Below, one piece after another: positions 4,844 to 61,518 of a DNA stretch of 64,000 nt. The position numbers and the translations under genes were made by a program. The stretch comes from an uncultured delta proteobacterium (lineage in GTDB: Bacteria > Desulfobacterota > Syntrophia > Syntrophales > Smithellaceae). A model generated the notes under the pieces. That model ran no database searches and was not told the origin of the DNA. It saw nothing but the letters and a program-made list of their open reading frames with translations. Positions within the stretch are counted from its first letter, which is position 1, and the number at the start of each line of letters is the position of its first letter. The stretch is taken from NCBI GenBank assembly GCA_963811325.1, contig CAWEQT010000001.1, positions 1,429,859 to 1,493,858 on the forward strand, written 5' to 3'.

Positions 4844-6931
4844 CTAGGCGGCTGATTTCTTATTTTCAGCCGCTTCCAGCGCGATCTTTTCCGCGATTGA
4901 CTGCGGAACCTGCCGGTAAATGGCAAATTCCATTGTGAACTGCGCTTTCCCCTGAGTGGCTGAACGCAGGATGGTTGAAAATCCAAACATTTCCGCCAGC
5001 GGCACCTGCGCTTCGATCACGCACATGACATCTTCATCCTGGGAACCGATAATCATGCCACGGCGCTGATTTAAAAGCCCCATTACCGGACCTTGAAACT
5101 CCACAGGAGTTTCCACAACTACCTTCATTATTGGTTCATGAATAACCGGCTTTGCCCGCAGATATGCTTCCTTGAACGCGCCGCGAGCCGCCGCCTGAAA
5201 GGCCATATCTGAAGAATCCACAGCGTGTGAAGCGCCATCATTAATGACTACCTTAACGCCGGTAACCGGAAACTCCAGCTTCGGCCCCTTGGCCATGCTT
5301 TGCTTAAATCCCTTTTCGCAGGCGGAAATATATTGAGTGGGAATTGCGCCGCCGAAAATTTTATTTTCAAAAATAAATTCGGTATCACTGATTGGCTCAA
5401 GATAACCGGCAATGCGGCCGAACTGACCGGCGCCACCGGTTTGTTTTTTATGGGTATAATTGAAATCGGCGCGCTGTGTAATCGTTTCGCGATAAGCGAC
5501 ACGCGGTTTTCCTGTCGTAACATCAGCGCCATATTCCCGTCGCATTCTTTCCACATAAATATCCAGATGCAGCTCGCCCATGCCTTCAATAATCGTGTCA
5601 TTGGTTTCGGCATCAACAAAAGTTTTAAAAGTCGGATCTTCCTTGGAAAATCTATTCAAAGCTTTGGCCATAGCCAACTGCGATTTGTTGTCTATAGGTA
5701 CGATCGCGAGCGATATGACCGGTTTGGGCACATACATTGAAATCATTGTCAAATTTATTCCCGGAGAGGTGAACGTATCTCCGGAAGAACATTCAATTCC
5801 AAATAATGCACCTATGTACCCGGCTCTCAGATATTCGACATCTTCCATTTGCTCGGCGTGCATTCGCACAACACGGCCAACCTTAACTTTTTTACCATTG
5901 CGAATATTGACAATTGTTGAACCCTTCGCCAGCGTTCCCTGATAAACGCGAATATAGGTTAATTGCCCGTACTGGCCATCTTCCAATTTAAAGACCAAAG
6001 CGACAATTGGTTTTTCCGGATCACTGTCCAGCACAACTATTTCCTCGTTCTTGTCCATATCCATCGCCACATTTTCTATCTCGGAAGGACAGGGCAAAAG
6101 ATAATTTACACCATCGAGCAATGGCTGTATGCCTTTGTTTTTATACGCTGAGCCCATATAAACAGGCGTTATTTCTCTTTCCAATGTACCTTTGCGTAGC
6201 GCCGCGTAAATTAATTCAGAAGTTATTTCGCGTTCATTGAGAATTGCATCCGTCAACTCATCGGAAAATAACGAAGCGGCATCAATCAATTCCTCCCTTT
6301 TCGCTTTGGCTTCTGCCAGAAGGTTTTGCGGAATTTCCGCCTCGCGGACAATTTCACCATTATCGCCATCAAAATAAAGCGCCTTCATGCCAACTAAATC
6401 AACAACACCTTCGGCTTCATTTTCCAGACCAATGGGAATCTGCATGGCCACGGCATTGTGTCCCAGCTTTGTTCTTAACTGGCTGATTACACGTAAAGGA
6501 TTGGCGCCACTGCGGTCGCATTTATTAATAAAGGCGATGCACGGAACTTTATATCTTTTCATCTGCCGGTCAACTGTGATGGATTGCGACTGAACGCCGC
6601 CCACGGAGCATAAAACGAGAATAGCGCCGTCCAGAACACGGAGCGATCTTTCCACTTCTATGGTAAAATCAACATGTCCCGGAGTGTCTATTATATTTAT
6701 CTCATGGCCTTCCCATTCACAATATGTGGCTGCCGAAGCTATGGTAATCCCACGTTCCTTTTCCAGTTCCATGGAATCCATAGTGGCTCCGACGCCATCT
6801 TTTCCCTTTACATCATGAATGGCATGAATTCTTTTCGTATAGTAAAGAATTCTCTCAGTAAGCGTTGTTTTTCCGGAATCTATATGGGCGCTTATACCGA
6901 TGTTGCGTAGTTTTTGATCTTCAATCTTCAT
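4844..6931 (-). CDS. fusA: Elongation factor G (stand-alone paralogue, not in an rpsL-rpsG-fusA-tuf context)
   Basis: 695 aa. G1 is AHIDSGKTT and G3 is [12 protein letters not shown] and full EF-G domains II-V are present ([22 protein letters not shown]). Confidence 0.9.
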
Positions 6932-15839: not shown

Positions 15840-16730
15840 ATGGAAATGGAAAAAGATAAAAAGACCTGCGATACATGCAGTGATACCAGTTGTTCCGCTG
15901 CCAAACAACAACAGGGGGAAAGCACAGAAGACTATGCCGACCGACGTAAACTGGAGGCGACATTATGCCGCATCCAGAAAAAAATTGTAGTGCTCTCCGG
16001 TAAAGGAGGCGTCGGTAAAAGCACCGTTGCCATCAATCTGGCCTGTTCTCTAATGCTTTCCGGCCTGCGCGTGGGACTGCTGGATGTGGATATTCACGGT
16101 CCCAGTGTGCCGACCATGCTGGGCTTGGAAAACGAAACTATAACCGGCGGTCCAGACGAAATCTTTCCCGTTGAATTGGGAAATATGAAGGTTATGTCTT
16201 TGGGTTTTCTTTTGCAAAACCCCGATGATGCTATCATCTGGCGGGGACCGATGAAAATGGGTGTCATAAAGCAGTTTCTGACAGATGTACACTGGGGAGG
16301 CCTGGATTATCTCATTGTGGATGCCCCTCCCGGAACCGGAGATGAACCTCTTTCGTTATGCCAGTTGATTCAACCGTTGGATGGAGCGGTGATCGTTACC
16401 ACACCACAGAGGGTAGCCGCAGTTGATGTGCGCAAATCGATAAGCTTTTGCAAACGGGTTGATGTGCCTGTTTTAGGTGTTATTGAAAACATGAGCGGAT
16501 TTGTCTGCCCGAAATGCGGTGAAATCACACAAATTTTACCCGCAGGCGGTGGAAAGATAATTGCCAGGGATATGAATGTACCCTATCTTGGTGCTATTCC
16601 CATAGATCCGGCTATTGCTCAGTCCAGTGACGAGGGCCGCGCATTCATCCATCATTATGCATCAAGTCCGACGGCAAAAATTATGCAGGATATCATCAAT
16701 AGGATTATGGTCTTAAATAAAACAAATTAG
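15840..16730 (+). CDS. mrp: Mrp/NBP35/ApbC-family Fe-S cluster carrier ATPase
   Basis: Deviant Walker A VLSGKGGVGKST is present. The CPKC motif (FVCPKCGE) is characteristic of Mrp/NBP35. The N-terminal leader is Cys-rich (CDTCSDTSC). Confidence 0.85.
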   Translation: MEMEKDKKTCDTCSDTSCSAAKQQQGESTEDYADRRKLEATLCRIQKKIVVLSGKGGVGKSTVAINLACSLMLSGLRVGLLDVDIHGPSVPTMLGLENETITGGPDEIFPVELGNMKVMSLGFLLQNPDDAIIWRGPMKMGVIKQFLTDVHWGGLDYLIVDAPPGTGDEPLSLCQLIQPLDGAVIVTTPQRVAAVDVRKSISFCKRVDVPVLGVIENMSGFVCPKCGEITQILPAGGGKIIARDMNVPYLGAIPIDPAIAQSSDEGRAFIHHYASSPTAKIMQDIINRIMVLNKTN

Positions 16731-16837
16731 TCGGCGCGCCAACGGAACAACAATGGAAACTGATTGCGGACTTTTTGCAGACACGTTACAGGTTGGAGAA
16801 AACGTCTGCTACAACTAAAAAATAAAGAGGAATCATT

Positions 16838-17791
16838 GTGACTCAAACCCAGTTGAGAGCGGTTGATAGGGTTGAGGTGCTGACGTTGCAAGACAACTAC
16901 ATCGAAATGACTGCGATGGACGACAACGCAGTCATTTCACGAGCCATGCCTCTCAAGGCCGGAGAAATCCGTACCTCCGTTTTAGCGGAACATGGTTTTT
17001 CCGCCTTGGTCAAAACCACCATCATCAACAAAACCCATACACTGCTTTTTGATTTTGGTTTTTCCGAAGACGGAGCTGCACAAAACGCCAAAACCCTTGG
17101 TGTCGATATGACCGAAGTCGAAGCTGTGGCGCTTTCGCATGGACATAGCGACCACACAAGTGGCATGGCAAAGCTGGCTGTTTTAATTGGCAGGAAAAAC
17201 GTTCCCTTTGTTACGCATCCGTCTGTATTCAAGTCACCTCGTTATCTGAAATACGGCGAAGAATTCAAAATAAACTTCCCAAAATTTACGCGTGATATGG
17301 TTCAATCCGCAGGACTTACCGTTGTTGAAGCGGAAAACCCATACGCTCTACTGGACAATACCATTTTATTTCTGGGAGAAATTCCGCGTTCAACAGACTT
17401 TGAAAAAGGCTTTTCCATCGCCCATTGTCAAAGAGATGGCAAGGAAGTTTGGGATGCAATTGAAGACGATACGTCCATTGTTATGAATCTGAAAAATAAA
17501 GGCCTGATCATTCTTTCCGGCTGTGCCCACTCGGGCATTGTCAACACAGTATTACACGCAATAGAAATGACTGGTATCAATCAGATTCACGTTGTGATGG
17601 GCGGATTTCACTTGTCCGGTCCATTTTTCGAACCGATTATTGACCGCACTACGCAGGAGCTTCAGAAATTTCATCCAGTCTATATAATTCCAACACATTG
17701 CACAGGCCGCAAAGCAATCATGACTATGGAAAAACAAATGCCTGATCAGTTTATTTTGAATATGGCGGGAACAAAACTCACTTTTACATAA
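16838..17791 (+). CDS. MBL-fold metallo-hydrolase (COG1237-like)
   Basis: LSHGHSDHTSG (HxHxDH variant), GCAHSG and later IPTHCTG are present. The GTG start lies after AAAGAGGA. Confidence 0.75.
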   Translation: MTQTQLRAVDRVEVLTLQDNYIEMTAMDDNAVISRAMPLKAGEIRTSVLAEHGFSALVKTTIINKTHTLLFDFGFSEDGAAQNAKTLGVDMTEVEAVALSHGHSDHTSGMAKLAVLIGRKNVPFVTHPSVFKSPRYLKYGEEFKINFPKFTRDMVQSAGLTVVEAENPYALLDNTILFLGEIPRSTDFEKGFSIAHCQRDGKEVWDAIEDDTSIVMNLKNKGLIILSGCAHSGIVNTVLHAIEMTGINQIHVVMGGFHLSGPFFEPIIDRTTQELQKFHPVYIIPTHCTGRKAIMTMEKQMPDQFILNMAGTKLTFT

Positions 17792-18450: not shown

Positions 18451-20151
18451 ATGACAATGAGAAAAAGAATCGTAATAATCGGCGGATCGGCGGCAGGCCC
18501 CAAAGCTGCAGCAAAGGCCAGACGAATCGATAATGATGCCGAAGTCATTATCTTGCAAAAAGACTCTGATCTTTCCATGGCGTCCTGCGGTTATCCCTAT
18601 TACATCGGCGGATATTTTGATGACCGCAATATGCTTTTGTGTACTCCCACCGGAGTTGTACGAACCCCGATGTTCTATCTAAACGCCAAGGATATCGAGG
18701 CTAAAGTGAACACTGAAGTAACGGTTATTGATCGCAAAAACCATTCAGTCTCGTTTCGTAACCTTACCACAGGAGAAACCGGCACACATACCTATGACAA
18801 ACTAGTTATGGCCACTGGTTCGTATCCGCAGATGCCTCTTGTGCCAGGTCTGGATCTGGATGGTATTACAACATTGCAATCCATGAAAGACGCCGATTTT
18901 ATGCGTAAAGTTCGGGACGAAAAGAAAATCAAGAAAGCCGTCATAGTCGGAGGTGGCTTGATAGGCATTGAAACCTGTGAAGCCCTGCAATTGGCCGGGA
19001 TTGAAATCACAGTTATTGAACTTCTGCCTCAACTGCTCACTTTTCTGGATTGGGAACTGGCGAAACTTGTGGAGAATCACGTACGCAGTAAAGGAGCAAA
19101 TGTAATCACCGATAACGGCATTGCCGAATTTCTGGGCGAAAACGGCAAACTGACGACGGTTAAACTGCAAAATGGTACGGAATTGCCCTGCGAATTGGCT
19201 GTTGTAGCTATTGGTGTTCGTCCTAACGTTAAACTGGCGAAAGAAGCGGGTCTTAAAATCGGCAGGTTGGGCGGCCTAAAAGTTAATAAATATATGCAGA
19301 CATCCGATCCGGACATCTACGCGGTGGGCGACTGTATTGAAACTGTCAATCGCATTACCGGCAAGAAGGTGCTCGCCCCTTATGGTGACTTAGCCAATCT
19401 TCAGGGACGCGTGGCAGGTGAAAATGCCGCTTCGGAAAATTGCGTTACATTCCCTGGAACAATTCAAACCGGCATATGTAAGGTTTTTGATTATGCAGCT
19501 GGCTCTACCGGACTATCCGAAAAGGCAGCGAGAAAATCCGGCCATTCAGATATTATTACCGTGATTAATGCCAGCCCGGATAAGCCCGGATATATGGATG
19601 CGAAACTGATAGTGACCAAACTTGTCGCTGATAAGAAAACAGGTAAAGTGCTCGGTGCGCAATGCATCGGTCCCGGTAATGTCGGGAAGCAAATTGCCCA
19701 GTGGGCCATGGCCATTCATGGGAAATTAACTGTGGAAGATCTAATCAATGCTGATCTACCTTACGCGCCTCCTTTTTCACTGCCTATCGATCACTTTATC
19801 GCCACAGCGCATATAATGCAAAACAAAATGAAAGGCAGGATGAAGGGCATTAGCTGCAAGGAGGTCAAAGAAAAATTATCATCCAAGGAAAAACCTTTTA
19901 TTATCGATGTGCGGGGATCCGATGAATTTGAGCAAATGCGACTCGGTATAGGTGAAACTCTCATTCCATTGGGAGCGCTGCGCAAACGGATCAAGGAACT
20001 GCCTGAAGACAAAAACAGGGAAATCATCTGCTACTGTAAGATTTCACTGCGCGGCTATGAGGCGGCATTGGTACTGGAAGGAAATGGTTGGAAGAATGTG
20101 AAAGTTATGGAAGGCGGCGTCATGGCCTGGCCATATCCGAGGGAAAAATAA
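18451..20151 (+). CDS. CoA-disulfide/persulfide reductase-type FAD-dependent pyridine nucleotide-disulfide oxidoreductase with C-terminal rhodanese domain (CoADR-RHD)
   Basis: The N-terminal dinucleotide fold is IVIIGGSAAGPKAA. The single redox Cys sits in SMASCGYPYY. A second Rossmann fold reads VIVGGGLIGIE. The C-terminal rhodanese has active-site Cys ICYCKISLRG. Confidence 0.85.
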   Translation: MTMRKRIVIIGGSAAGPKAAAKARRIDNDAEVIILQKDSDLSMASCGYPYYIGGYFDDRNMLLCTPTGVVRTPMFYLNAKDIEAKVNTEVTVIDRKNHSVSFRNLTTGETGTHTYDKLVMATGSYPQMPLVPGLDLDGITTLQSMKDADFMRKVRDEKKIKKAVIVGGGLIGIETCEALQLAGIEITVIELLPQLLTFLDWELAKLVENHVRSKGANVITDNGIAEFLGENGKLTTVKLQNGTELPCELAVVAIGVRPNVKLAKEAGLKIGRLGGLKVNKYMQTSDPDIYAVGDCIETVNRITGKKVLAPYGDLANLQGRVAGENAASENCVTFPGTIQTGICKVFDYAAGSTGLSEKAARKSGHSDIITVINASPDKPGYMDAKLIVTKLVADKKTGKVLGAQCIGPGNVGKQIAQWAMAIHGKLTVEDLINADLPYAPPFSLPIDHFIATAHIMQNKMKGRMKGISCKEVKEKLSSKEKPFIIDVRGSDEFEQMRLGIGETLIPLGALRKRIKELPEDKNREIICYCKISLRGYEAALVLEGNGWKNVKVMEGGVMAWPYPREK

Positions 20152-20293
20152 ACACTAAAAAGAAAGGAGGCATTGATGTATGGCTGAGGAAATCAAGGCC
20201 GGATGTGCCAGACCCACAGGCGGACCGGTCGGAGAAAAAATCGACGTCAAAAAAGAAACCAGTCAGCAAACATCGATCAAGGAGGTCAAAACA

Positions 20294-20902
20294 ATGGTTA
20301 CTGTCGGTAAAAAGGCACCGGATTTCACTGCTCCGGCATATCACAAGGGGAAATTTATCTCTGTTCAATTGTCAGAATTTCTTGGCAAATGGGTTGTTTT
20401 ATGTTTCTATCCCGGAGATTTTACATTCGTCTGAGCTACCGAAATCTCGGCGGTCGCCGAGAAATATCCCGAATTTAAAAAACTGGGCGTTGAAGTTTTA
20501 TCCATGAGTGTCGACAGCGTCTTTGTTCATAAAATGTGGAATGACCATGAATTGTCCAAGATGGTCAAAGGCGGGATACCATATCCCATGCTTTCTGACG
20601 GTGGCGGTAAAGTTGGAAGCATCTATGGAGTTTATCTGGAAGAAGCTGGCGTGGAAGCAAGAGGAAGATTTCTGATTGACCCCGACGGTATTATTCAGGG
20701 TTTTGAAGTGCTCACTCCGCCGGTCGGACGTAATGTCAGCGAAACTTTCCGGCAGCTACACGCCTTTCAGCATGTGCGCAACAGCAAAGGAACCGAGGCC
20801 ACACCATCCGGCTGGAAACCGGGCAAACCCACGCTAAAACCAGGTCCCGATTTGGTGGGCAAGGTTTGGGAAGTCTGGAAAACTTCCATGGCTTTTGATT
20901 AA
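20294..20902 (+). CDS. Selenocysteine-containing peroxiredoxin (AhpC/Prx1 family; UGA 20432-20434 read as Sec at the peroxidatic position)
   Basis: Track ORFs 20180..20434 and 20504..20902 are in the same frame. The joined sequence reads [17 protein letters not shown]... versus the universal FYPxDFTFVCPTE. Downstream Prx homology continues ([30 protein letters not shown]). ATG 20294 lies 8 nt after AAGGAGG. A SECIS-like hairpin follows the UGA. Confidence 0.8.
20446..20461 (+). promoter_or_regulatory. Bacterial SECIS-like hairpin (CUCGGC-GGUC-GCCGAG)
   Basis: A 6-bp GC-rich stem with a GGUC loop starts exactly 11 nt after the in-frame UGA. As I recall, the E. coli fdhF minimal SECIS has the same 11-nt spacing and the same GGUC loop sequence. 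Confidence 0.65.
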
Positions 20903-21779: not shown

Positions 21780-22115
21780 ATGAGTAAGCAGGAATTAGTA
21801 AAACATGCAGATGATAGTAATTTTGAGACAATGGTTTTAAAGGCCGATAAACCCGTTCTGGTAGATTTCTGGGCTCCGTGGTGTGGACCTTGCCGTGCTA
21901 TTGGTCCAATATTGGAAGAAGTGGCAGACGTTTATGGTGATCGGGTGAATATTGTGAAGGTTAATGTAGATGATAATCCTCAGATATCAGGGAGATACGG
22001 TGTTAGAAGTATTCCCACATTACTGATTATCAAGGATGGAAAGGTAACAGATACCACGGTTGGTTTGGCATCGAAGGACCAATTGACCGATCTTATCAAT
22101 CGGAATCTTAATTAG
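21780..22115 (+). CDS. trxA: Thioredoxin
   Basis: 111 aa with the motif DFWAPWCGPCRAIGP. AGGAGG lies upstream. Confidence 0.9.
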   Translation: MSKQELVKHADDSNFETMVLKADKPVLVDFWAPWCGPCRAIGPILEEVADVYGDRVNIVKVNVDDNPQISGRYGVRSIPTLLIIKDGKVTDTTVGLASKDQLTDLINRNLN

Positions 22116-26527: not shown

Positions 26528-27835
26528 TTATTTAACTCTTTGTTCTTCTCGCTTTAGTTTACGCTTATATATCCAGTTTTGAAAAATTGATTTCGGTTCG
26601 ATACCAAAATAATACGACATCCATAACACGCCCGACTGGAGACTGTCGGAAAGCATACGCAAACGGGATATTCTAAAAGGATATCGTTCACGGATTTTCA
26701 GGGCATCCTCAAAATCCTTCACCACAACAGTTCTGCCGTCCTTTCCTGAAACGACGATTCCTCCTTCGCGCAGAAACCTCAATCTTTTCGCTGATTCTTT
26801 GATATCCGGCCCACAGACAAGCGCGCACTGCCCACACGTGAGTACGTTCGGATCTTTAATAGAAATCCCAAGGTATTTTTTTATAAGACCGGCCTGCACT
26901 TTACGCCGTTCCAGTTCGTCTTGGGGAAGGTCTTCATACCGCTTTACGATCTTCCATTCATCTATCCATTCCTCGGGATGCAATTCACAACCAATGCTGC
27001 GAATGAGTTTATAACGTACTGTTGAATCGCCCACCGATCCCCCTTTTATGAGGAGTTTTTTTCTGATGTTCTCCTTCCCGGGATCAGGCTCCCTTCCCAC
27101 CCAGGAACTTATCCAGTGCCGGCCCCAGCTGGAAAATTTTTTGTCCGGAGACAGACTGTGAAGACCGAAGCAGGAAGCGTTGCATAAATCTATACTCCTG
27201 CGTTTTCCCCGCGGATGAAGTTCGCCATTTAGACTAACGTACTCTTCTTTTTCCATCTCAAACATTTTTGCCGGGCACGCCTTGTCGCAAATAAGACATT
27301 TCCTGCAGTATTGATCGATGAAATATCTCGGCTCAAGCATGGAGTCGCTTTTGAGAACCGCATCGGTCACAACTGTGGAGAGATACACGGCCGCTCCATA
27401 TTCTTTTGTCATGACATTGCCGGACATCCCCTGCCCCCCTATGCCGCTGACAATAGCCCCGAAGCGATGAGAAAAACTCGGATGCGTGGAATAAACATCC
27501 AGAGAACGACGATAGGTGTTATTTGTCGGAACCGCGCGCGCCTTGTGGCCCAGTTTATTCAGATAATCCGCAAGTCGCCCGGCAATATGGTGGATTTTCT
27601 GATTCATAATCAGTTGGTTGGTATTATGAGTAACCGGAGTTTTTTTGGATAAAAAATCATATATGGCATCCACATTCATAGGCATGGCGAAAGATACTAT
27701 GGATTTTGCCCCGCGCATCGTATAGGTAGGATCAAGAGAAGGAGGGCCATCAAATCGTTCAGGGCCGGCTATACCGATTACCCCAACACCCTGATTTTTT
27801 AAAAAACTTCTGATATTTTCTTCTATGCCGCTCAT
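26528..27835 (-). CDS. 4Fe-4S dicluster protein, epoxyqueuosine reductase (QueG)/reductive-dehalogenase-like fold; function uncertain
   Basis: 435 aa. CRKCLICDKACPAKMF and LTCGQCALVCGPD are ferredoxin-type motifs. The N-terminal part resembles the QueG-like domain. Confidence 0.5.
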   Translation of the reverse strand: MSGIEENIRSFLKNQGVGVIGIAGPERFDGPPSLDPTYTMRGAKSIVSFAMPMNVDAIYDFLSKKTPVTHNTNQLIMNQKIHHIAGRLADYLNKLGHKARAVPTNNTYRRSLDVYSTHPSFSHRFGAIVSGIGGQGMSGNVMTKEYGAAVYLSTVVTDAVLKSDSMLEPRYFIDQYCRKCLICDKACPAKMFEMEKEEYVSLNGELHPRGKRRSIDLCNASCFGLHSLSPDKKFSSWGRHWISSWVGREPDPGKENIRKKLLIKGGSVGDSTVRYKLIRSIGCELHPEEWIDEWKIVKRYEDLPQDELERRKVQAGLIKKYLGISIKDPNVLTCGQCALVCGPDIKESAKRLRFLREGGIVVSGKDGRTVVVKDFEDALKIRERYPFRISRLRMLSDSLQSGVLWMSYYFGIEPKSIFQNWIYKRKLKREEQRVK

Positions 27836-33758: not shown

Positions 33759-33887
33759 TATTTTCTCACGATAAAAGTGCAGTTCCCGTATTTTTAAGTA
33801 ATTCTAGAAATATTTTATTAGATTGTGATTTTACAATTAATTCGTTTCATCCAACAATCTATATGTAATTATATCATTTTGAGGTAA

Positions 33888-34796
33888 GGAACGCAACCAG
33901 CCAATTTGGTTTGTGCAGAAGATTCTGGCAGTAAACTGAATTTCGATTGCAGGTTCCGTGAAGTATCTTATCCGGAGAGAAAACTGATCAAGCGGTTTGA
34001 AGTTATATAGCCAATTATCGACTCAGACGGCGTTTTTAATCTATGTAAGATAAAGACACACCTGTTTATGAGGATGACCGGGGTAGTTAAAAACAAATTT
34101 GGCGTTATTCCGGGTTTAACCAAGCCCGGCTACCATGCGAAGCTCAACGATACCATTCATTTTGCCGACATGCTGCTGGACCTGGCTCAATATGTTTTGC
34201 CGCGTCTGACTATTATGGACGCGGTTGTGGGAATGGAAGGTAATGGGCCCAATTCGGGCACGCCTAAAAAAGTTGGTTTGCTTATTGCGTCAAACAACCA
34301 ACTGGTGCTGGATATAGTCGCAGGTGAGACCATGGGCTTAAGCAGGGGAAACAACCCTGTCCTTCTGGCTGCGGAACGAAGAGGATTGGATCCGATATAT
34401 ATTAAAGATATAGAAATTATCGGTGAAAGCCTTTCCTGGATAAAAATTCCGGACTATAAATTACCGGCCAATATTTTTGAAGGTGCAGGGATGGGACCGT
34501 TGCCTCTGGTTCAGAATAGGCTGAAATTTCTTTTCAAAGATGCTTTTTCGGCAAAACCGGTTATTAATAAAAAAGCCTGTATCGCCTGCAGGGCATGTTA
34601 TGAAGCATGTCCGGTTAAAGCGATTTCAATACACGAACAAGTAAAGGCCGCGGTTATTGATGAAAAAAAATGCATTCACTGTTATTGCTGTCACGAGATG
34701 TGTCCCGAAAATGCCATGGATCTTTTAAAATATCTTTTTTTCGGGAAATATTTGTATTATACTATATCAAGTTTTCATACCTTCCCAAGGTTCTAA
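33888..34796 (+). pseudogene. Decayed DUF362-ferredoxin gene (N-terminus missing, in-frame TAG at 34008-34010)
   Basis: The frame reads ...FDCRFREVSYPERKLIKRFEVI*PIIDSDGVFNLCKIKTHLFMRMTGVVKNKFGVIPG.... The DUF362 hallmark (K)lKTH...KN.fG spans the track ORF start at 34068. The preceding homologous frame is broken by TAG and begins only at 33888. Two C-terminal CxxCxxCxxxCP motifs are intact. Confidence 0.6.
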
Positions 34797-38657: not shown

Positions 38658-38886
38658 TCAGCAAATTAGCATAGGTAAGGTGATTGAGAAGTCCGTGCGG
38701 AATCTCACGGCGATAAAGTTTTTGTCCTCACAATGCTGTCGCATAACCGATCGCTTAAGCGATCAGTAGCCAATCGAGAGTCTGAGAAAACTTGTTTCTA
38801 ATTTTTGTTTTGTCCTGGGTATTGAGAACTGGTTTAATGACAAGATGTTGCCGATTTTGGATGGATTTAAAGGGCGAAGGCAGTAT

Positions 38887-39618
38887 ATGAAGGTTTCCCT
38901 GTTCATTCCGTGTACAGTAGACATTATGATGCCGGAAATCGGTGTTGCCGGGCATACGCTGCTTTCCGGACTGGGAGTGCAGACGATATATCACAAAGAG
39001 CAGACGTGTTGCGGACAACCGCTTTTCAATGCGGGTTACTGCGATCAGGCAAAGCGGGTGGCGAAACATTTCATCGAAGTTTTTGGTGAGGATGAATGTG
39101 TCGTAAGCCCCGCGGGCTCCTGTGTCTGCATGGTCAAATTTCATTACCCGGAGCTGCTGAAAGATGAACCTTCCTGGCATTCGCGAGCTTGCGACCTTGC
39201 AGGGAGAATTTATGAGTTGAGCCAGTACATCGTCGATGTCCTTAAAGTGACCGATGTCGGCGCAAAATATACAGGAAAGGTTTCCTACCACGAGTCGTGC
39301 CATATTTTACGGGGGCTTAATATCTCCGACCAGCCCAAAAAGCTTATTGCCGGGGTCGAGGGCGCGCAGTTCGTGGAACTTAACAATTCAACTGCGTGTT
39401 GCGGTTTCGGCGGGGAGTTCGCAATTGGTTATCCCGAGATATCAGAGGCCATGGTCAAGGATAAGGTCACAAACTTTATAAACTCAGGCACAGACATACT
39501 GCTATTGTGTGAACCCGGATGTCTTGCGAATATCAGCGGATATCTGCATCGGAATCATCCGGAAAAGACGGCTATGCATCTGGCAAGTTTTCTGGCAAAA
39601 AACTTAAAGAAGGTCTGA
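38887..39618 (+). CDS. lutA: Lactate utilization protein A (LutA/LldE/YkgE; CCG-domain Fe-S oxidoreductase)
   Basis: MKVSLFIPCTVD...CCGQPLFNAGY...YHESCH...CCGFGG gives two CCG motifs. Confidence 0.85.
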   Translation: MKVSLFIPCTVDIMMPEIGVAGHTLLSGLGVQTIYHKEQTCCGQPLFNAGYCDQAKRVAKHFIEVFGEDECVVSPAGSCVCMVKFHYPELLKDEPSWHSRACDLAGRIYELSQYIVDVLKVTDVGAKYTGKVSYHESCHILRGLNISDQPKKLIAGVEGAQFVELNNSTACCGFGGEFAIGYPEISEAMVKDKVTNFINSGTDILLLCEPGCLANISGYLHRNHPEKTAMHLASFLAKNLKKV

Positions 39619-39619
39619 T

Positions 39620-41092
39620 ATGCACTCACATGTCAAAAAATTCATAGAAACAGCACGGGAAGAATTAAAAAACGAACAGAGCCAAATGTTCCTGATGATG
39701 GTGTCACTTGGCGCTCCCATTTTGCGCCAGATAGGCATGTCTTCCTTTCCCGATACTGTGGCAGCCGAGTCATACTCACGCGCGATTCGGGCTGATGCGA
39801 TTACCAGAATGCCCGAATTACTGGAAGAGTTCGAAAAAAATGCTGTGGCAAAGGGCGCCAATGTGTTGTGGGCTCGAGATGCCGCCGAGGCAAATAATAT
39901 TATTCTGAACATTGCCAATCGCAGGGGCGTTTCTTATGTTATGAAAGGCAAGTCCATGATCACCGAAGAAATCGGGCTCAACGAACACCTTATCAAGAAC
40001 GGTGTTGATGTGTGGGAGACAGACCTCGGCGAGGTGATCACCCAAAATCTTTCTCTCACTCCCTTCCATTTAGTGGGGCCTGCAATCAACGTTCCCCCAG
40101 AGAAAATATCGGAGGCTTTCTTGAAGAAAGGTATTATCAAAAAAGCCTCAACAGATCCGGTTGAACTGGGCAGTGGCGCACGTAAATATTTACGCGACAA
40201 GTTTCGGAATCTGCAAATGGGCATCGTCGGTATCAACATGGCGGTGGCGCAAACCGGCACAATTATAAATGTTGAAAACGAAGGAAACATCCGGCTGATT
40301 AAATCCTCGCCGAAGACATTGGTTGCGATCATGAGCCTGGAAAAAGTGGTTCCTACCATTACAGACGCCATCTACATGACACGAATGCTTACAAGGAACT
40401 GCACAGGACAGAAAATCACCAGCTATGTCTCCATGGACACAGGCCCCAGGAAACCGGATGAACAAGACGGCCCCGAAGAACTATTTATTATTATCCTGGA
40501 TAACGGACGTTCAGCCATTTACAATAATTATCAGACCAGGGAAATCCTCAAGTGCATCCGTTGCGGCGCATGTCTGAATACGTGTCCGATTTATACCAAG
40601 ATAGGCGGCTATCCCTATGGCGCCACCTATTGCGGCCCCATCGGCCAAGTGCTCACACCTATGCTCGCGGGCATCGAGAACACCGCGGATCTTTACCGGG
40701 CATGTACGCTCTGCGGAATGTGTAAAAAAATCTGTCCGGCCGGTATCGACCATCCTTCTCTTCTGCTTTCATACCGTGCCCTGGAAATCGATATAAATAA
40801 ACAGAAAGGAAAGAAGACTTTACAGTCCCGCAGGAATAACGCAATGGCAAATCTGATTTCCTTAGGTATGAGCTATGGATGGTTATGGAATCTCGGTTTA
40901 AAAATTACAAGGCCTCTTATGAACAGTTTAGCTAAAGATGGCTATATCGGGAACATTCCGATGGATGTGCAGGGCTGGTTTGGATGCCGCGATCTACGGG
41001 CTATCCCGGCAAAGACATTCCACGAAACATGGAATGACCTTCAATCCCATCCTGAACTTTCAGGCAATACTTCGAAAAAGGAGGATCCCTGA
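39620..41092 (+). CDS. lutB: Lactate utilization protein B (LutB/LldF/YkgF; LUD domain + 2x[4Fe-4S])
   Basis: 490 aa. CIRCGACLNTCPIY and CTLCGMCKKICPAGI are present. The N-terminal DUF162/LUD region contains VGINMAVAQTGT. Confidence 0.85.
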   Translation: MHSHVKKFIETAREELKNEQSQMFLMMVSLGAPILRQIGMSSFPDTVAAESYSRAIRADAITRMPELLEEFEKNAVAKGANVLWARDAAEANNIILNIANRRGVSYVMKGKSMITEEIGLNEHLIKNGVDVWETDLGEVITQNLSLTPFHLVGPAINVPPEKISEAFLKKGIIKKASTDPVELGSGARKYLRDKFRNLQMGIVGINMAVAQTGTIINVENEGNIRLIKSSPKTLVAIMSLEKVVPTITDAIYMTRMLTRNCTGQKITSYVSMDTGPRKPDEQDGPEELFIIILDNGRSAIYNNYQTREILKCIRCGACLNTCPIYTKIGGYPYGATYCGPIGQVLTPMLAGIENTADLYRACTLCGMCKKICPAGIDHPSLLLSYRALEIDINKQKGKKTLQSRRNNAMANLISLGMSYGWLWNLGLKITRPLMNSLAKDGYIGNIPMDVQGWFGCRDLRAIPAKTFHETWNDLQSHPELSGNTSKKEDP

Positions 41093-41094
41093 AC

Positions 41095-41763
41095 ATGCAG
41101 GCAAGAGAAGAGATACTCGGACGATTGAAATCGGCAGTGAAAAACGAAAACATTGACCGGCCGGCGAAACCAATACTCTCTGAAATTACACTGAAACGTG
41201 AGCAGATGATCCAGCGCTTTCAAAGTGAATTAAGCGCGAAGACTGGGGTCTTATATAAGGCCGGGGACCAGGAAGATGCGCTACGAATCCTGCTGGATAT
41301 TGTAAAAGAGGAAGGGTTGAAATCTTTTGCCGCCTCATCAGAAAAGATTCACGGCGTCGATATTAAGTCCCTTGACTCCAAAAACGGATTTTCCGTAACT
41401 TTCCCGGAGGATCTTGCAGACCGGGAAACCTTGCGTGAAGCCGCATTCGCTGCAGATGCCGGGATTACATCTGCCGATTTTGCGGTTGCCGAAACGGGAA
41501 CTATCGGCATCATCTTCAATCAGAAACACCCCCGGCTTCTCTCCATTGCTCCGCCTCTCCACATTGCCATCATGTCCATAAAAGATCTTTATCCAGTCTA
41601 TGAAAATGTTATGGAGATGGTTTTCAAAAATACGAAAGAAATTCCCAGTCAATTCAGCTTTATCACGGGGCCTAGCGCCACAGCGGACATTCAGGGCATA
41701 GAATTTAAAGGTATGCACGGACCGAAGAAAATATTTGTCATCATGATCATGGATGAATCATGA
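41095..41763 (+). CDS. lutC: Lactate utilization protein C (LutC/LldG/YkgG; LUD domain)
   Basis: 222 aa. GITSADFAVAETGT and TGPSATADI are typical LUD-domain segments. It lies 2 nt after lutB. Confidence 0.85.
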   Translation: MQAREEILGRLKSAVKNENIDRPAKPILSEITLKREQMIQRFQSELSAKTGVLYKAGDQEDALRILLDIVKEEGLKSFAASSEKIHGVDIKSLDSKNGFSVTFPEDLADRETLREAAFAADAGITSADFAVAETGTIGIIFNQKHPRLLSIAPPLHIAIMSIKDLYPVYENVMEMVFKNTKEIPSQFSFITGPSATADIQGIEFKGMHGPKKIFVIMIMDES

Positions 41764-43272: not shown

Positions 43273-44310
43273 TTGGAGCGATATATGCGACACAGCCAGG
43301 CCGAGAAGATGGAAATCATCAGGATTGTGGAAGGCTCGCCACTGAGTGTGCGGCAGACGCTTGCGGAACTCAACATAAACCGCAGCACATTTTACACCTG
43401 GTATAAACGATACTATGAGCATGGTTATGATGGCCTGGCCAACGCATACCATCCGCCCAAACAATTTTGGAATAAGATTCCGCCATGGGAGAAGCAGCTA
43501 GTAGTAAAAACGGCATTGGATCATCCCGAAAAATCATCCAGAGAACTCGCGTGCTATATCACTGATAAAATGGGTTATTATATCTCGGAATCAACGGTTT
43601 ATCGTATTTTAAAAGCCCATGATCTGGTTACCAGTCCGCTCTATACGGTAATAACGGCTTATGAGAAGTTCCCTCAACCGACAAAGGGAGTTAATGAGCT
43701 GTGGCAGACTGATTTCACTTTTTTCAAAGTGATGCGTTGGGGGTGGTATTACTTGTCCACTATTCTGGATGACTACAGCCGCTTTATTCTGGCATGGCGG
43801 TTGTGTGAGGGTATGTCGACCGATGATGTAAAGCTGACCCTCGATGATGCTATTTTATTTACAGGTATAAGGAAAGTAAGGGTTATAAGTAGACCACGGC
43901 TCCTATCCGACAACGGTCCCTGCTATGTTTCAAAAGCTTTAAGTAACTATCTGGAGGAAGAAGGGATCGGCCATACCAGAGGCAAGTCGAATCATCCAAT
44001 GACTCAAGGCAAGATAGAGAGGTACCACCGTTCCATGAAAAATCTCATTCTGCTGGAACATTATTACAGCCCCTCTGATCTTGAGGACCAGATCCGTATT
44101 TTTGTAGATTACTACAACAATTATCGGTACCACGAGGCCTTGGGAAATGTTACGCCTGCGGACGTGTATTATGGACGCGACCGCGAAGTTCTTGAAAGAC
44201 GCAAACAGATTAAGCAGAAAACCATGCTTTTACGAAGAAAGCAAAAAAGTTCTTGGAGACTTGCTGAAATTTCAGGAAAGGTATATATGAGTCCTGAAAC
44301 CATCTCTTAA
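43273..44310 (+). CDS. IS3-family transposase OrfB (rve integrase core, DDE)
   Basis: WQTDFTFF (D), LSDNGPCY (D) and QGKIERYHRSMK (E) are present, with a C-terminal YNNYRYHEALG. It is probably expressed mainly as an OrfAB fusion. Confidence 0.85.
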   Translation: MERYMRHSQAEKMEIIRIVEGSPLSVRQTLAELNINRSTFYTWYKRYYEHGYDGLANAYHPPKQFWNKIPPWEKQLVVKTALDHPEKSSRELACYITDKMGYYISESTVYRILKAHDLVTSPLYTVITAYEKFPQPTKGVNELWQTDFTFFKVMRWGWYYLSTILDDYSRFILAWRLCEGMSTDDVKLTLDDAILFTGIRKVRVISRPRLLSDNGPCYVSKALSNYLEEEGIGHTRGKSNHPMTQGKIERYHRSMKNLILLEHYYSPSDLEDQIRIFVDYYNNYRYHEALGNVTPADVYYGRDREVLERRKQIKQKTMLLRRKQKSSWRLAEISGKVYMSPETIS

Positions 44311-44750: not shown

Positions 44751-45122
44751 ATGAAGTCTATATTTTATGTCTTGATATTAAGCATTCTATTAGCAGCGAG
44801 CATCGCATTTTCTACGGATTCCATTTCACCTGAAGACGCAATAAACCACATCGGTCAACAAGCAATTGTATGCGGAACTGTTTCCAGCACGCATTTTTCT
44901 TCTCGAACTAAGGGTCAACCTACTTTTATACACCTTAACAGACTTCATCCAAATCAAATATTTACGATCTTAATTTGGGGATCAGATAGAAGTAAATTCT
45001 CCGGTGCTCCTGAAACTTATTACAACAATAAAAGAATATGCGTATCAGGCAAGATTCAGCAATTTAAAGGAACGCCTGAAATCATAGTGAGAAACGCTAA
45101 TCAAATAAGTGAAGAAAAATGA
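44751..45122 (+). CDS. Secreted OB-fold-like protein
   Basis: The signal peptide is MKSIFYVLILSILLAASIAFS. The mature part has the pattern ..HIGQQAIVCGTVSS......TFIHLN...PNQIFTILIW......Y..KRICVSGKIQQFKGTPEI, which resembles bacterial OB-fold domains. AAAGGAG SD is present. Confidence 0.55.
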   Translation: MKSIFYVLILSILLAASIAFSTDSISPEDAINHIGQQAIVCGTVSSTHFSSRTKGQPTFIHLNRLHPNQIFTILIWGSDRSKFSGAPETYYNNKRICVSGKIQQFKGTPEIIVRNANQISEEK

Positions 45123-45144: not shown

Positions 45145-45215
45145 TTCAGGGTGTAGAATTTAAAGGCATGCACGGGCCGAAGAAAATTTTTGTCATCATT
45201 ATCATGCATGAATGA
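45145..45215 (+). pseudogene. Relic of a lutC 3' end (last ~23 codons + stop) fused to the glycerate kinase start
   Basis: By my alignment, 63 of 71 nt are identical to 41690-41760. It translates VQGVEFKGMHGPKKIFVIIIMHE*, versus lutC IQGIEFKGMHGPKKIFVIMIMDES*. Its TGA overlaps ATG 45212 as ATGA. Confidence 0.7.
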
Positions 45216-46594
45216 ATCATTACAAAAAATTAAAACTGAAGAGGAATGCCGTGAATCCTGTTAAAGACCTGGCTAGTATATACTGGGATGCTGTCCGTGA
45301 GGTTGATCCAACAAGTCTCATTCACTCACGGGTGAAAAAGGACGGCCGGACACTGGTCATTCACGGCCAGGACACAAGGATTTCGGAAGACCTCTTGCGC
45401 TATAAACGGATAATTATCCTCGGCATAGGTAAGGCATCGGCCAGCATGGCATCGGCCATGGAGAGCATTATCGGGAATGATCTATCAAAGGGATTAATCA
45501 TTACAAAATACGGACACGGTCTGAATCTCCGGAAAATTAAAGTCATGGAAGCAGGCCACCCTATCCCCGATGAAAACAGCATGGAAGGCGCCCGCCTACT
45601 TGTACAGATGGCGAGCATCGCTGACGAACACACCCTCATCATTAACCTCATCTCAGGCGGAGGCTCATCCCTGTTCTGCCTGCCCATAGACGGAATCAGC
45701 CTTGAAGACAAGAGGAAGACAACCAGGATTCTGCTTTTATCGGGCGCTGCTATTGATGAGATAAACTGCATCAGGAAACATATCTCAAAAGTAAAGGGCG
45801 GAGGCCTTGCACAGATCGCCCACCCGGCAAGACTCATCAACCTCATTTTATCGGACGTGATAGGCGACAGAATCGACACCATCGCTTCAGGTATTACTGC
45901 CCCTGATCCGACGACATTTAACGACGCCCTATTGATCCTGCAAAAATACCATCTTGAGGATAAGTTGCCAAAGACCGTGATAAATCATCTCCGTCTGGGG
46001 GCACAGGGGAGCGTTCCCGAGACGCTCAAAGCAGGCAACCCGGTATTTGGCAATACCGTGAATATCATCCTGGGCAACAATGCACTCGCATGCAGCGCAG
46101 CTTGCAGGTCTGCGCAGAAACTGGGTTATGACGCATGCATCCTCAACACAACCCTGGCAGGAGAGGCATCTCAGGCAGGAGCATGTTTCTCCCTGCTTGC
46201 AAAAGAAATTGACGCGGACAGATCCGGAAAGGCAAAACCTGCCGCTATCATCACCGGAGGCGAGACTACCGTAACGATTCGGGGAAAAGGAAAGGGTGGA
46301 AGAAACCAGGAGATGGCCCTTGCCTTTGCAAGCCAGTTGCACCGCATATGTCCCGGTTCTCAGAACATCTTCTTCCTCTCCGCAGGCACCGATGGGAGTG
46401 ACGGGCCCACGGACGCGGCAGGCGCCTTTGTTACCGCGGAACTCATGGAGAAGATGAAAGATATTTCAGCCCTGGCCTCAGCTTGCCTGAAAGAAAACGA
46501 TGCATATCATTTCTTTTGGGATACGGGTCATCTTTTCACGACAGGCCCAACCTATACTAATGTGTGCGATATCCAGATCCTTATAGTTGTATGA
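45212..46594 (+). CDS. Glycerate 2-kinase / hydroxypyruvate-reductase-like protein (DUF4147 + MOFRL domains)
   Basis: ILGIGKASASMA..., GHPIPD and the MOFRL segment GGETTVTIRGKGKGGRNQEMALAFA are present. Confidence 0.85.
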   Translation: MNHYKKLKLKRNAVNPVKDLASIYWDAVREVDPTSLIHSRVKKDGRTLVIHGQDTRISEDLLRYKRIIILGIGKASASMASAMESIIGNDLSKGLIITKYGHGLNLRKIKVMEAGHPIPDENSMEGARLLVQMASIADEHTLIINLISGGGSSLFCLPIDGISLEDKRKTTRILLLSGAAIDEINCIRKHISKVKGGGLAQIAHPARLINLILSDVIGDRIDTIASGITAPDPTTFNDALLILQKYHLEDKLPKTVINHLRLGAQGSVPETLKAGNPVFGNTVNIILGNNALACSAACRSAQKLGYDACILNTTLAGEASQAGACFSLLAKEIDADRSGKAKPAAIITGGETTVTIRGKGKGGRNQEMALAFASQLHRICPGSQNIFFLSAGTDGSDGPTDAAGAFVTAELMEKMKDISALASACLKENDAYHFFWDTGHLFTTGPTYTNVCDIQILIVV

Positions 46595-46621
46595 AAAATT
46601 GTCTCATCACAGGAGGTTTTT

Positions 46622-47893
46622 ATGTGCGATACTTTAGGAATCGGTACGGAACTCACTGGATCCGGCATCAGCATTTTTGGAAAGAACTCAGACAGGGAGT
46701 CTGACGAAACCCAGCTAGTCCTTTCAGTGCCGTCAAAGAGTTATCCGGAAAAAGAAGACCTGCAATGCACCTATATTACTATTCCTCAGGCGGGTTCAAC
46801 GTATGCCATGGTCATATCCAAGCCTTTCTGGATATGGGGCGCAGAGATGGGAGTGAACGAAAAGGGCGTGGCCATCGGGAACGAGGCCCTGTTCACCAAG
46901 GTCAAACAGGAAAAAAATCATGGACTCATCGGCATGGATCTTTTACGGCTAGCCCTGGAGAGGGGCGCCGATGCCGAAGAAGCGGCACAGGTTATAATCG
47001 AGCTCCTGAAAAGATACGGGCAGGCAGGACCATGCGGATATCGCGACAAGAAGTTTGAATACATGAACTCGTTCATCATCATGGACAGGCATGCCATAAT
47101 CAAACTGGAGACAGCGGGCAGGGATTATGCGCTCAAGCGTTTCACCGGTCATGCCGTGATTTCAAATGGAATAACCATTGCTAAGGACTGGGACTCATCT
47201 TCGCTGGCAGCGGGAACTGATTTCAGTGCATTGAGCAATCCCTTGATTACATTCTTTTCAGGAAGCGCCTTTCGGAGGGACCGGAATCAGGCTTCCATAC
47301 TCAAGGTAAAAGGCCATATCAGCATAACCGATGTCTTTGCAATGTTTCGGGATCATTACGCTTCTTCGCCTGAAAAGGGATTTAATCGTGATGTCTGCAT
47401 GCATGCGTCTGACCCGTTGATCAGGAAGTCGCAGACAACCGGGTCCATGGTGGTTGAATTGCACCCGGATGACAAGTTCAGGATATTTGTAACCGGAGGT
47501 TCCGCGCCGTGTCTCACTGCATTTAAGCCGTTCATGCCTGCTGCGCCTTTCATAGACATCAGAGATGGCGCCGGATATTACTCTGATCATTCATACTGGT
47601 GGAGACATGAGGTCTATCACATCAGTGCAGTCTTGCGCTATGAAGCCGTCAGACCTCTGGCGCAGGGATACATTCTGGACAAGGAGGCACAATGGACTGC
47701 CCGCCTTCCTGTTTATGAATGGAACGATGCGGGAAAGTTATTGGTTGAAACTTCCCACGGTGCGTTCAGGGAGTCGGAGAGTTGGGAAAAGACTATGATT
47801 GAGCGGATGAGAGAAATGAAAAAAACTTCCCTGGGCCTATCTTCCTTGTTCTGGAAGCGTATGGCCCGGCGTTCAGGAGTCCCTGTGGTATGA
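46622..47893 (+). CDS. Ntn-hydrolase, peptidase C69 (secernin-like dipeptidase) family
   Basis: The N-terminal MCDT places the nucleophile Cys at position 2. FGKNSDRESDETQ resembles the secernin/C69 FGKNSxRPxDE motif. GAEMGVNEKGVAIGNEA is present. Confidence 0.6.
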   Translation: MCDTLGIGTELTGSGISIFGKNSDRESDETQLVLSVPSKSYPEKEDLQCTYITIPQAGSTYAMVISKPFWIWGAEMGVNEKGVAIGNEALFTKVKQEKNHGLIGMDLLRLALERGADAEEAAQVIIELLKRYGQAGPCGYRDKKFEYMNSFIIMDRHAIIKLETAGRDYALKRFTGHAVISNGITIAKDWDSSSLAAGTDFSALSNPLITFFSGSAFRRDRNQASILKVKGHISITDVFAMFRDHYASSPEKGFNRDVCMHASDPLIRKSQTTGSMVVELHPDDKFRIFVTGGSAPCLTAFKPFMPAAPFIDIRDGAGYYSDHSYWWRHEVYHISAVLRYEAVRPLAQGYILDKEAQWTARLPVYEWNDAGKLLVETSHGAFRESESWEKTMIERMREMKKTSLGLSSLFWKRMARRSGVPVV

Positions 47894-58902: not shown

Positions 58903-59676
58903 CTATTCCTTTTTCAAAGGTCCGAAACCAAACGGTCCAAAGGTGAATTGATAACCAACGTAAACAGACAAATAATTAGGCCCATTAATATCCTGTCCCG
59001 CAGAAAGTAATAAGTGATGGTTTTCGGTAAAGTTGATAATAGCACCGACTGTATATCCGGTAGTGTCATTTCTATCGGTTGTGCCGGCTGTCTCGTAATA
59101 GAGTTCCGCTCCCAATGTAAGATGCTTATTGATATCCCTCGAAAGTTGCCATCCAAACTGCAACCAGTCCTTGTTTCCAAAACCTGGATTAATCCAGTAT
59201 CCTCCGCCGCCATAGGTTGTCCATGACCCAAAACTTTTTTGGAGCCAGATGGGCAGGAAATATTGAGTTCTGCCGTTTCCCAAACCCCTTCCGACATCAC
59301 CGGTTGCAAGTTCAACCAGGGGAAATATTCCTACCTGAGGCATATAGTCAGTTTCTTTTATAAAGCGAAATTTGATTCCCAGCTCCGTATCTCCATATCC
59401 ATATTGAGAAGATTGTCCTTCCGGTTTCTCATAGACAAGGGGAGCAAGCAAATGGATTTGAACATTCGGTATAACGCCATAGTTTATTTCCAGATGTGGA
59501 AGAGTGGAGGAATCCTGATCTCGATCATGCATATATAGCACTGCAAGGTACATCTCCCAGTGCTGATATTCCACCGGTTCCGGATCGTCTGTTAAAAAAG
59601 GCGGACCAGCCTGCGAAATTTGGGGAACAAAAGCGGAAAACAACAAAATGAAAACGAGAATAAAAAAGAATGACAT
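58903..59676 (-). CDS. Outer-membrane beta-barrel protein of the MetA-pathway/phenol-degradation-like transporter family
   Basis: The signal peptide is MSFFFILVFILLFSAFVPQISQA. GPPFLTDDPEPVEYQHWE... and alternating aromatic beta-strand patterns are typical of this family. Confidence 0.6.
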   Translation of the reverse strand: MSFFFILVFILLFSAFVPQISQAGPPFLTDDPEPVEYQHWEMYLAVLYMHDRDQDSSTLPHLEINYGVIPNVQIHLLAPLVYEKPEGQSSQYGYGDTELGIKFRFIKETDYMPQVGIFPLVELATGDVGRGLGNGRTQYFLPIWLQKSFGSWTTYGGGGYWINPGFGNKDWLQFGWQLSRDINKHLTLGAELYYETAGTTDRNDTTGYTVGAIINFTENHHLLLSAGQDINGPNYLSVYVGYQFTFGPFGFGPLKKE

Positions 59677-59907
59677 CACACCTTTTAAATGACCCCATTT
59701 TAAACCGCCACGATATGTTATTAAATTATTCCCGGAGAGATTTACTGATTTCATTGCCAAGACTTAAATAGGATTTCATGGTACCCGGTTGCTCCAAAAT
59801 TTGACCAAAAATGCAAGAATAGTCAGCACGAGATCAAGATGAAGTTATAGCAATTCATTTTTCATTCGATCAAATCTTTGCCATCGCTTTAAGGACAATC
59901 CTTGTCT

Positions 59908-61509: not shown

Positions 61510-61518
61510 AGGAAACCC

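Follow-up and report, generated by a model that had tools for sequence, protein, structure and literature searches.

A predicted prxU selenoprotein gene with a covarying SECIS hairpin and two apparent start sites in a Smithella-like bacterium

The prxU gene and its family

The DNA analysed here, a stretch of 64,000 nucleotides from contig CAWEQT010000001.1 (referred to as the window in the rest of the text), carries on its forward strand a peroxiredoxin gene, prxU, that plain open reading frame (ORF) calling breaks in two. The ORFs 20180..20434 and 20504..20902 lie in a common frame, offset by 324 nucleotides or 108 codons, and the sole stop between them is the TGA at 20432-20434. The initial annotation had described two ORFs of one frame split only by this codon, and the sequence confirms it. 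Translation of the ORF beginning at 20294 through the TGA yields 202 residues. As was also anticipated, genes of this kind reach public protein clusters in pieces: fragments of 80-83 aa and 123-140 aa are found there under the names 'hypothetical' or 'redoxin domain-containing'. The features of the locus and of its surroundings are listed in Table 1.

Table 1. Positions of prxU, its predicted signals and residues, and other genes in the window.
Feature	Position	Strand	Remarks
AGGAGG Shine-Dalgarno site	20165..20170	+	9 nt before ATG 20180
prxU long reading frame	20180..20902	+	240 codons including predicted Sec85; stop TAA 20900-20902
N-terminal motif, G8-C9 to residue 19	20201..20237	+	Cys9 codon TGT 20204-20206
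Internal AAGGAGG Shine-Dalgarno site	20279..20285	+	in coding frame, 8 nt before ATG 20294
ATG of Met39, putative second start	20294..20296	+	short form 202 aa, Sec47
Cys75 codon TGT in LCFYPGD	20402..20404	+	ten residues before Sec
Active site T82-F-V-U85 (TxxU motif)	20423..20434	+	Sec codon TGA 20432-20434
SECIS hairpin	20445..20462	+	stem 20445-20452 with 20455-20462; apical G20453-U20454; GGUC loop 20452-20455
Arg161 codon, RGRF motif	20660..20662	+	invariant in 121/121 homologues
Thr208 codon, where typical 2-Cys peroxiredoxins have their C-terminal resolving Cys	20801..20803	+	EATPSGW opposite EVCPAGW in PDB alignments
CoA-disulfide-reductase-like flavoprotein, C-terminal rhodanese	18451..20151	+	Pfam Pyr_redox_2, Pyr_redox_dim, Rhodanese
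Thioredoxin (WCGPC), candidate reductant	21780..22115	+	Pfam Thioredoxin, 110 bits
FAD-oxidase/4Fe-4S/CCG fusion, 1023 aa	8168-11239	-	
LutABC-like CCG/LUD cluster	38845-41763	+	
EtfB gene with ferredoxin-fused EtfA	60709-62715	+	
Fe/Mn superoxide dismutase	62979-63590	-	

For profile scans and PDB alignments, the selenocysteine (Sec) position was entered as Cys. Read in this way, the protein matched the Pfam domain AhpC-TSA at 130.6 bits, together with 1-cysPrx_C, and the NCBIfam equivalog model NF040737 (peroxi_PrxU) at 418.5 bits for the frame starting at 20180 and 396 bits for the one starting at 20294 (cut-off 270); the match to the longer frame spans profile positions 2-233 of 233. The next-best NCBIfam model, AhpC, scored 193 bits, under its own cut-off of 272. 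The UGA had been proposed to occupy the peroxidatic Cys of the peroxiredoxin motif, and alignment of the joined translation with PDB structures places it there: 2-Cys peroxiredoxins match at E = 8e-48, the substituted Cys falls on their peroxidatic Cys, and their DFTFVCPTE stands opposite DFTFV[C]ATE of the window protein. Arg161 of the RGRF motif, which would be the active-site Arg of peroxiredoxins, is invariant among the homologues.

With typical 2-Cys peroxiredoxins of the AhpC/Prx1 type (PDB 4fh8, 5zte, 1qmv and 1n8j; E-values 1e-48 to 1e-38) the window protein has in common the fold family, the PxDFTFVC/U frame, the conserved Arg and the C-terminal 1-cysPrx_C region. It differs from them in its predicted Sec in place of the peroxidatic Cys, in Ala rather than Pro after the catalytic residue, in EATPSGW for EVCPAGW, in Cys75 for Phe, and in the gain of a Cys-bearing N-terminal arm. 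The AhpC-TSA (PF00578) fold with Sec is also found in the peroxiredoxin-like UxxC/UxxU selenoproteins of the thiol:disulfide oxidoreductase type (PMC1088965, PMC13188914). These carry a thioredoxin-like UxxC, whereas the window protein has TxxU and belongs to the true peroxiredoxin selenoprotein family; TxxU is the motif given for Sec-containing peroxiredoxins (PMC1088965, PMC13188914), and reviews citing Soehling et al. 2001 (Biol Chem 382:979) list peroxiredoxin (TxxU) among the experimentally verified bacterial selenoproteins (PMC13188914, PMC9312934, PMC1088965). On profile scores and homology, the protein is a member of this family, and we regard it as almost certain that the gene is prxU and codes for an AhpC/Prx1-type peroxiredoxin with selenocysteine as its peroxidatic residue.

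A tblastn search of plasmids located the prototype of the family on the megaplasmid of Peptoclostridium (Eubacterium) acidaminophilum DSM 3953 (NZ_CP007453.1). The window gene is 76.7% identical to the prxU annotated there (WP_084481301.1, 240 aa) over 100% of the short form, and together with the match to NF040737 this upholds the earlier statement that Sec-peroxiredoxins have a precedent in PrxU. In the prototype, TGA occupies the corresponding codon, and the hairpin UUUCAGC-AGUU-GCUGAAA matches the window element in position and shape. The two genes also share the GCxRP extension (GCARP in the prototype), an internal AGGAGG-ATG, Thr or Ala at the site of the lost C-terminal resolving Cys, and an Mrp/NBP35 gene close by. 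They differ in their hosts, the prototype coming from a clostridium and the window from a Smithella/Syntrophales-like bacterium whose closest loci are 86-90% identical. Unlike the prototype, the window prxU follows a gene for a CoA-disulfide reductase (CoADR) fused to rhodanese, and the linker of its N-terminal arm differs in sequence and carries a clade-specific TGGPVGE.

A scan of one genome per species provided 80 full-length related loci, which with the window make up the 81 sequences of the alignments below. They come from Smithella/Syntrophales (the closest, at 86-90% identity), Desulfobacterales, Nitrospirota, Spirochaetota, Cloacimonadota, Chloroflexota, Calditrichota and KSB1, and in tblastn query residues 1-240 were matched in nearly all of the 80. 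The window gene is a routine copy of a family known since 2001 and covered by a curated NCBI model, and is not new. The fresh point is that prxU appears to have two conserved start sites.

Two conserved start sites

Beginning at ATG 20180 rather than at 20294 adds 38 residues, and the PrxU profile covers this extension at a gain of 22 bits. A Shine-Dalgarno-like core lies 4-11 nt ahead of the long-form start in at least 65/81 loci, a count that is an underestimate, the wrong Met having been picked at some loci. The residues of the N-terminal motif are invariant or nearly so over the 81 loci, while their synonymous codons are free to vary: Cys is encoded by TGT in 42 and TGC in 39, Arg by all six codons at 10-17 each, and Gly by all four. 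Because the motif residues are fixed while the codons vary, the extension is evidently translated. In the wider family the core of the motif is GCxRP, and Cys9 is present in 105/105 database homologues that have the extension. The stretch from the motif to Met39 is variable and rich in Lys and Glu.

Within this coding sequence lies a second predicted ribosome-binding site, the constraint on which is of another kind. The Glu codon at -4 is GAG in 62 cases and GAA in 2, compared to 471/827 in the remainder of these genes (p = 5e-24), and the Lys codon at -5 is AAG in 46 and AAA in 1, compared to 647/830 elsewhere (p = 2e-15). The 6-mer AGGAGG occurs at the internal site in 58/79 loci, with a spacer of 8 nt the commonest, and GGAGG is spelled there by differing amino acids (KEV, QEG, KEA, EEA, TEE). 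The codon of Met39 is ATG in 79/81 loci; the exceptions, GTG (L025) and ATT (L067), both follow AAGGAGG and 8 nt. Taken together, the two conserved pairs of Shine-Dalgarno site and ATG suggest that two isoforms are likely made.

A single start is nevertheless possible, if somewhat improbable in our judgement, and it could be either of the two. Use of the long frame alone, with the internal AAGGAGG serving for instance as a translational pause, agrees with the choice of that frame by the NCBIfam profile and RefSeq and with amino-acid-level selection on the N-terminal peptide; it leaves the fixed synonymous sites of the internal Shine-Dalgarno sequence to be accounted for, and the non-ATG codons found at position 39, GTG and ATT, are alternative starts. 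Use of the short frame alone agrees with relatives that have no extension (for example L085 and L087, whose upstream sequence is interrupted by in-frame stops) and with the prototype, for which length arithmetic from Met38 gives 203 aa; purified E. acidaminophilum PrxU is reportedly a protein of 203 aa with its selenocysteine numbered U47. Against it stands the N-terminal motif, invariant in residues and free in codons. As to the initial annotation's 202-aa product, the conserved internal Shine-Dalgarno site makes 20294 a plausible start, but the family profile and RefSeq, which annotates the 240-aa frame of P. acidaminophilum as prxU, use the upstream ATG, here 20180.

The UGA codon and its SECIS hairpin

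An in-frame stop stands at the Sec codon in all 80 related loci; it was read as TGA in 74/74, the other 6 being seen as a translated stop only. The ratio of nonsynonymous to synonymous differences (pN/pS) after the TGA is 0.065 and 0.083 for the window against its two closest loci. The sequence 3′ of the TGA is thus under strong purifying selection, which indicates translation past this codon.

Immediately downstream lies a putative selenocysteine insertion sequence (SECIS). Here the initial annotation had noted a hairpin at 20446-20461, 11 nt past the UGA and with a GGUC loop; direct reading gives CUCGGC-GGUC-GCCGAG at these positions, after a spacer of 11 nt (20435-20445), and one further outer pair extends the helix to UCUCGGC/GCCGAGA at 20445-20462. 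In an alignment of the 81 sequences over 51 nt, pairing is kept in 99.4% of the helix cells, and five pairs are altered on both sides. The covariation score of 0.404 compares with 0.148 in shuffles, 0/500 of which reach 0.404, and with 0.113 at most when the partner is slid. Pair 20449/20458 is GC in 46 sequences, AU in 24, UA in 7 and CG in 2; as these are third positions of Ser and Ala codons, neither coding nor base composition explains its covariation. Pair 20446/20461 is UA in 52, CG in 20 and AU in 5, the AU cases requiring a Glu-to-Asp change. The bases at either end of the loop, 20452 and 20455, covary perfectly (AU 41, GC 38) around an invariant GU. Ranked by mutual information, these three pairs lead all 1275 column pairs (1.42, 1.01 and 1.00 bits), and the next pair that is non-adjacent and outside the helix columns reaches 0.215. 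A lower helix enclosing the UGA (20426-29 with 20440-43), predicted by folding, was rejected: it shows no covariation and is identical to shuffles.

The covariation of 20452 with 20455 implies a closing interaction that leaves only two unpaired bases, which is odd for a free hairpin; this closing pair may reflect the shape of the RNA when bound by SelB.

The hairpin follows the Sec codon through the family. The stem is intact in 77/81 Sec forms compared to 2/9 forms with Cys or Ser at this position, and the apical GU (20453-20454) is invariant in 81/81 Sec forms, so that stem and GU occur together in 77/81 and 1/9, respectively (p = 5e-8). The second Cys/Ser form with a stem has an AU tip, and in the others 4-6 of the 8 pairs remain. 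In most Cys/Ser homologues, on this comparison, the hairpin is decaying. Three Cys or Ser homologues deserve mention in their own right. L091:301-912 (P0102) has TGC (Cys) and a perfect SECIS hairpin with its GU tip, and the N-terminal extension is present ahead of its called start; a recent change from Sec to Cys that left a fossil SECIS behind would look like this. In L087:967-1566 (P0120) the peroxidatic codon is TCA (Ser), a single base removed from TGA, and both Cys75 and the N-terminal extension are missing; either the sequence is in error or this relative is catalytically dead. The Cys (TGC) homologue of Desulfoferula mesophila (L081:6061-6723, AP028679.1) no longer has the hairpin; about 2.3 kb downstream of it an AIRS/AIRS_C protein is encoded, possibly SelD or else a different enzyme of the PurM family.

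The geometry that the initial annotation had given for Escherichia coli fdhF, an offset of 11 nt and a GGUC loop, holds on the real fdhF sequence, which reads TGA, then CACGGCCCATC (11 nt), then GGTTGCAGGTCTGCACC with its GGUC loop. Both elements thus start 11 nt after the UGA, have a GGUC loop and lie inside coding sequence, and the central G and U of the fdhF loop, the bases that SelB recognises, are also found in the prxU hairpin. They differ in that the prxU stem is a perfect helix of 7-8 bp, that its GU is nearer the UGA by one nucleotide (positions 22-23 compared to 23-24 in fdhF), that the bases at the two ends of its loop covary as G:C or A:U, and that it has no supported paired lower stem. 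The fdhF element has been described as an upper stem-loop of 17 nt, at a distance of 11 nt from the UGA and with G23/U24 (PMC8659212), and a small apical loop with a conserved G, such as GU 20453-20454 provides, is a criterion for bacterial SECIS elements in the consensus of Zhang and Gladyshev (PMC1088965, PMC8659212). At the level of sequence comparison, the prxU alignment gives an unusually clean picture of a bacterial SECIS, with all four Watson-Crick pairs at one stem position.

Several observations weigh against Sec insertion at this codon. Folded alone, the hairpin has a free energy of -12.2 kcal/mol and a z-score of -1.3 to -1.9, which is statistically unremarkable; the case for a SECIS rests on sequence comparison. 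The fdhF element has a bulged U (U17) that E. coli SelB requires, whereas the prxU hairpin has no bulge. The bulged U is specific to the E. coli element and falls outside the general bacterial SECIS consensus. As for the machinery, ARAGORN gave 0 tRNAs and so no tRNA-Sec in the 64-kb window, and a Pfam scan of about 50 window ORFs found no SelA, SelB(-wing) or SelD/AIRS domain. An Rfam scan of the window at gathering thresholds returned no match, and a permissive scan of 20380-20540 only chance matches (SNORD105 and RAGATH-25, E ~5). The window was also searched for further ORF pairs that share a frame and have a single TGA between them; none made a convincing second selenoprotein, and the candidate at 45212-47893 was rejected as two adjacent genes.

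If the TGA were a true stop, the locus would be a pseudogene or two small ORFs, and the downstream peroxiredoxin homology a decaying remnant. The two pieces returned by plain ORF calling, the storage of such fragments as separate proteins and the lack of Sec machinery within the window all agree with that view, which we nonetheless consider very improbable: the stop recurs at the same codon across many phyla, the downstream part is free of frameshifts and has the low pN/pS given above, the hairpin covaries at synonymous sites, and truncation at the active site would leave a peroxiredoxin functionless.

Among the 120 best database homologues, the residue at the Sec position is Cys in 11, 7 of which were confirmed as TGC or TGT on DNA, 'W' in 106 and 'G' in 1. 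The homologue P0079 (L086:17-634) has W in the protein and TGA in the DNA, and the stored W and G letters are apparently the result of metagenome gene callers reading through TGA under genetic code 4 or 25 on short contigs. Thousands of 'DFTFVWATE' pseudo-sequences in public protein sets follow from this gene calling. The letters W or G in 107/120 homologues are what speaks for a UGA recoded as Trp or Gly (genetic code 4 or 25), a reading whose probability we put close to nil. TGA terminates 13/48 Pfam-supported window genes and so serves this organism as a normal stop; the homologous loci belong to Syntrophales, Desulfobacterales, Nitrospirota and other groups, the three named using the standard genetic code; a peroxidatic residue of Trp or Gly would leave the enzyme without catalysis; a plain sense codon would not be expected to have a covarying GU-tipped hairpin just past it; and the letters themselves are best read as gene-caller artefacts. 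Insertion of Sec in this organism is what we infer from the intact, selected gene and its SECIS. The initial annotation correctly recognised a selenoprotein gene from an in-frame UGA at a catalytic Cys with a hairpin behind it, which validates its approach to genes that plain ORF callers split.

Neighbouring genes and the recycling of PrxU

The CoADR-rhodanese gene ends 28 nt upstream of prxU. No terminator was found between the two in a promoter and terminator scan that performed at chance level, and they may be co-transcribed. NCBIfam CoADR models match its product below their cut-offs. The adjacency was found only in 9/10 of the closest Smithella-group loci (L001-L005, L007, L008, L010). 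The initial annotation's description of prxU as anchoring a redox cluster is weak for this reason, the CoADR/rhodanese linkage being limited to these loci; a role for the CoADR-rhodanese protein as a dedicated AhpF-like partner of PrxU was likewise considered and dropped as unsupported as a family trait, with synteny only in the closest relatives. The thioredoxin of the window may be linked to PrxU as its reductant; a thioredoxin gene lies near prxU in only 2/80 loci. Other prxU neighbours are a Crp/Fnr regulator, a YgaP-like membrane protein, a ferredoxin, NifS, NifU and a DsrE-like protein.

In distant phyla, a gene for an Mrp/NBP35 P-loop ATPase recurs near prxU, often with a metallo-beta-lactamase (MBL)-fold hydrolase and a small FeMo-cofactor-family gene (window 15840-17791; L092:3753-4535 and 6360-6606; L004, L005, L015, L033, L034, L051, L066 and L077). 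In P. acidaminophilum, Mrp is encoded directly downstream of prxU and is 40% identical to the window copy.

Farther away, the ORF at 34068-34796 codes for a DUF362 and 4Fe-4S protein whose match to the DUF362 profile begins only at position 114 of 200; neither an in-frame continuation nor a TGA was found in 33760-34067 upstream of it, and it is probably a 5′-truncated gene. A transposase/integrase with rve core and helix-turn-helix (HTH) domains at 43273-44310 marks an insertion sequence, flanked by a fumarylacetoacetate-hydrolase-family gene and a DUF4147/MOFRL gene. Four ORFs had no Pfam match at E <= 1e-5 or 1e-6, namely 26528-27835 (-), 46622-47893 (+), 58903-59760 (-) and 44751-45122 (+), of 434, 423, 285 and 123 aa, respectively. 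The other redox genes of the window, in the last four rows of Table 1, are consistent with a syntrophic anaerobe that has defences of its own against oxidative stress.

A ribosome reaching UGA 20432-20434 would meet the hairpin at 20445-20462, which shows the GU dinucleotide at its tip and would recruit SelB with Sec-tRNA(Sec), leading to insertion of Sec as residue 85 of the 240-aa frame from ATG 20180 or residue 47 of the 202-aa frame from ATG 20294. The peroxidase chemistry is taken by analogy from the peroxiredoxin family and the E. acidaminophilum prototype: by homology, the selenolate would sit in the conserved PxxxTxxU...R pocket (Pro78, Thr82, Arg161) and reduce a hydroperoxide, becoming a selenenic acid.

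How the enzyme would then be regenerated is a question that its cysteines raise. The Thr208 column holds T in 108 homologues, A in 10 and C in 2; as Thr208 replaces the C-terminal resolving Cys, recycling must use something else. This part of the earlier description of a 1-Sec enzyme without a resolving Cys stands, but the remainder is unproven, as Cys9 and Cys75 are conserved, the latter being Cys in 118/121 aligned homologues and Phe in typical 2-Cys peroxiredoxins of the PDB. The oxidised Sec could be reduced directly by thioredoxin or a small thiol, or it could form a selenenylsulfide with Cys9 of the N-terminal arm or with Cys75. An AlphaFold model of the Cys-form homologue P0025 is confident in the peroxiredoxin core, with a mean predicted local distance difference test (pLDDT) of 87.9; the N-terminal motif and arm reach only about 63-65, and the linker stays below 50.

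It is a speculative and, at present, rather doubtful proposal that throughout this widespread PrxU clade, the E. acidaminophilum prototype included, the gene makes both proteins, that Cys9 of the long form, carried on a flexible arm of about 25 residues, acts as a tethered resolving thiol and that the short form is a 1-Sec peroxiredoxin. To our knowledge, neither an N-terminal resolving arm nor a programmed pair of isoforms has been described for peroxiredoxins, and literature searches found nothing on an N-terminal resolving arm or a dual-start isoform pair in this family. If the proposal is true, Cys9 would take the place of the lost resolving Cys, joining the oxidised Sec through a Se-S bond and handing it on to thioredoxin. 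The apparent dual starts and the conserved N-terminal Cys arm of prxU bear on the regeneration of Sec peroxiredoxins that lack the usual resolving Cys.

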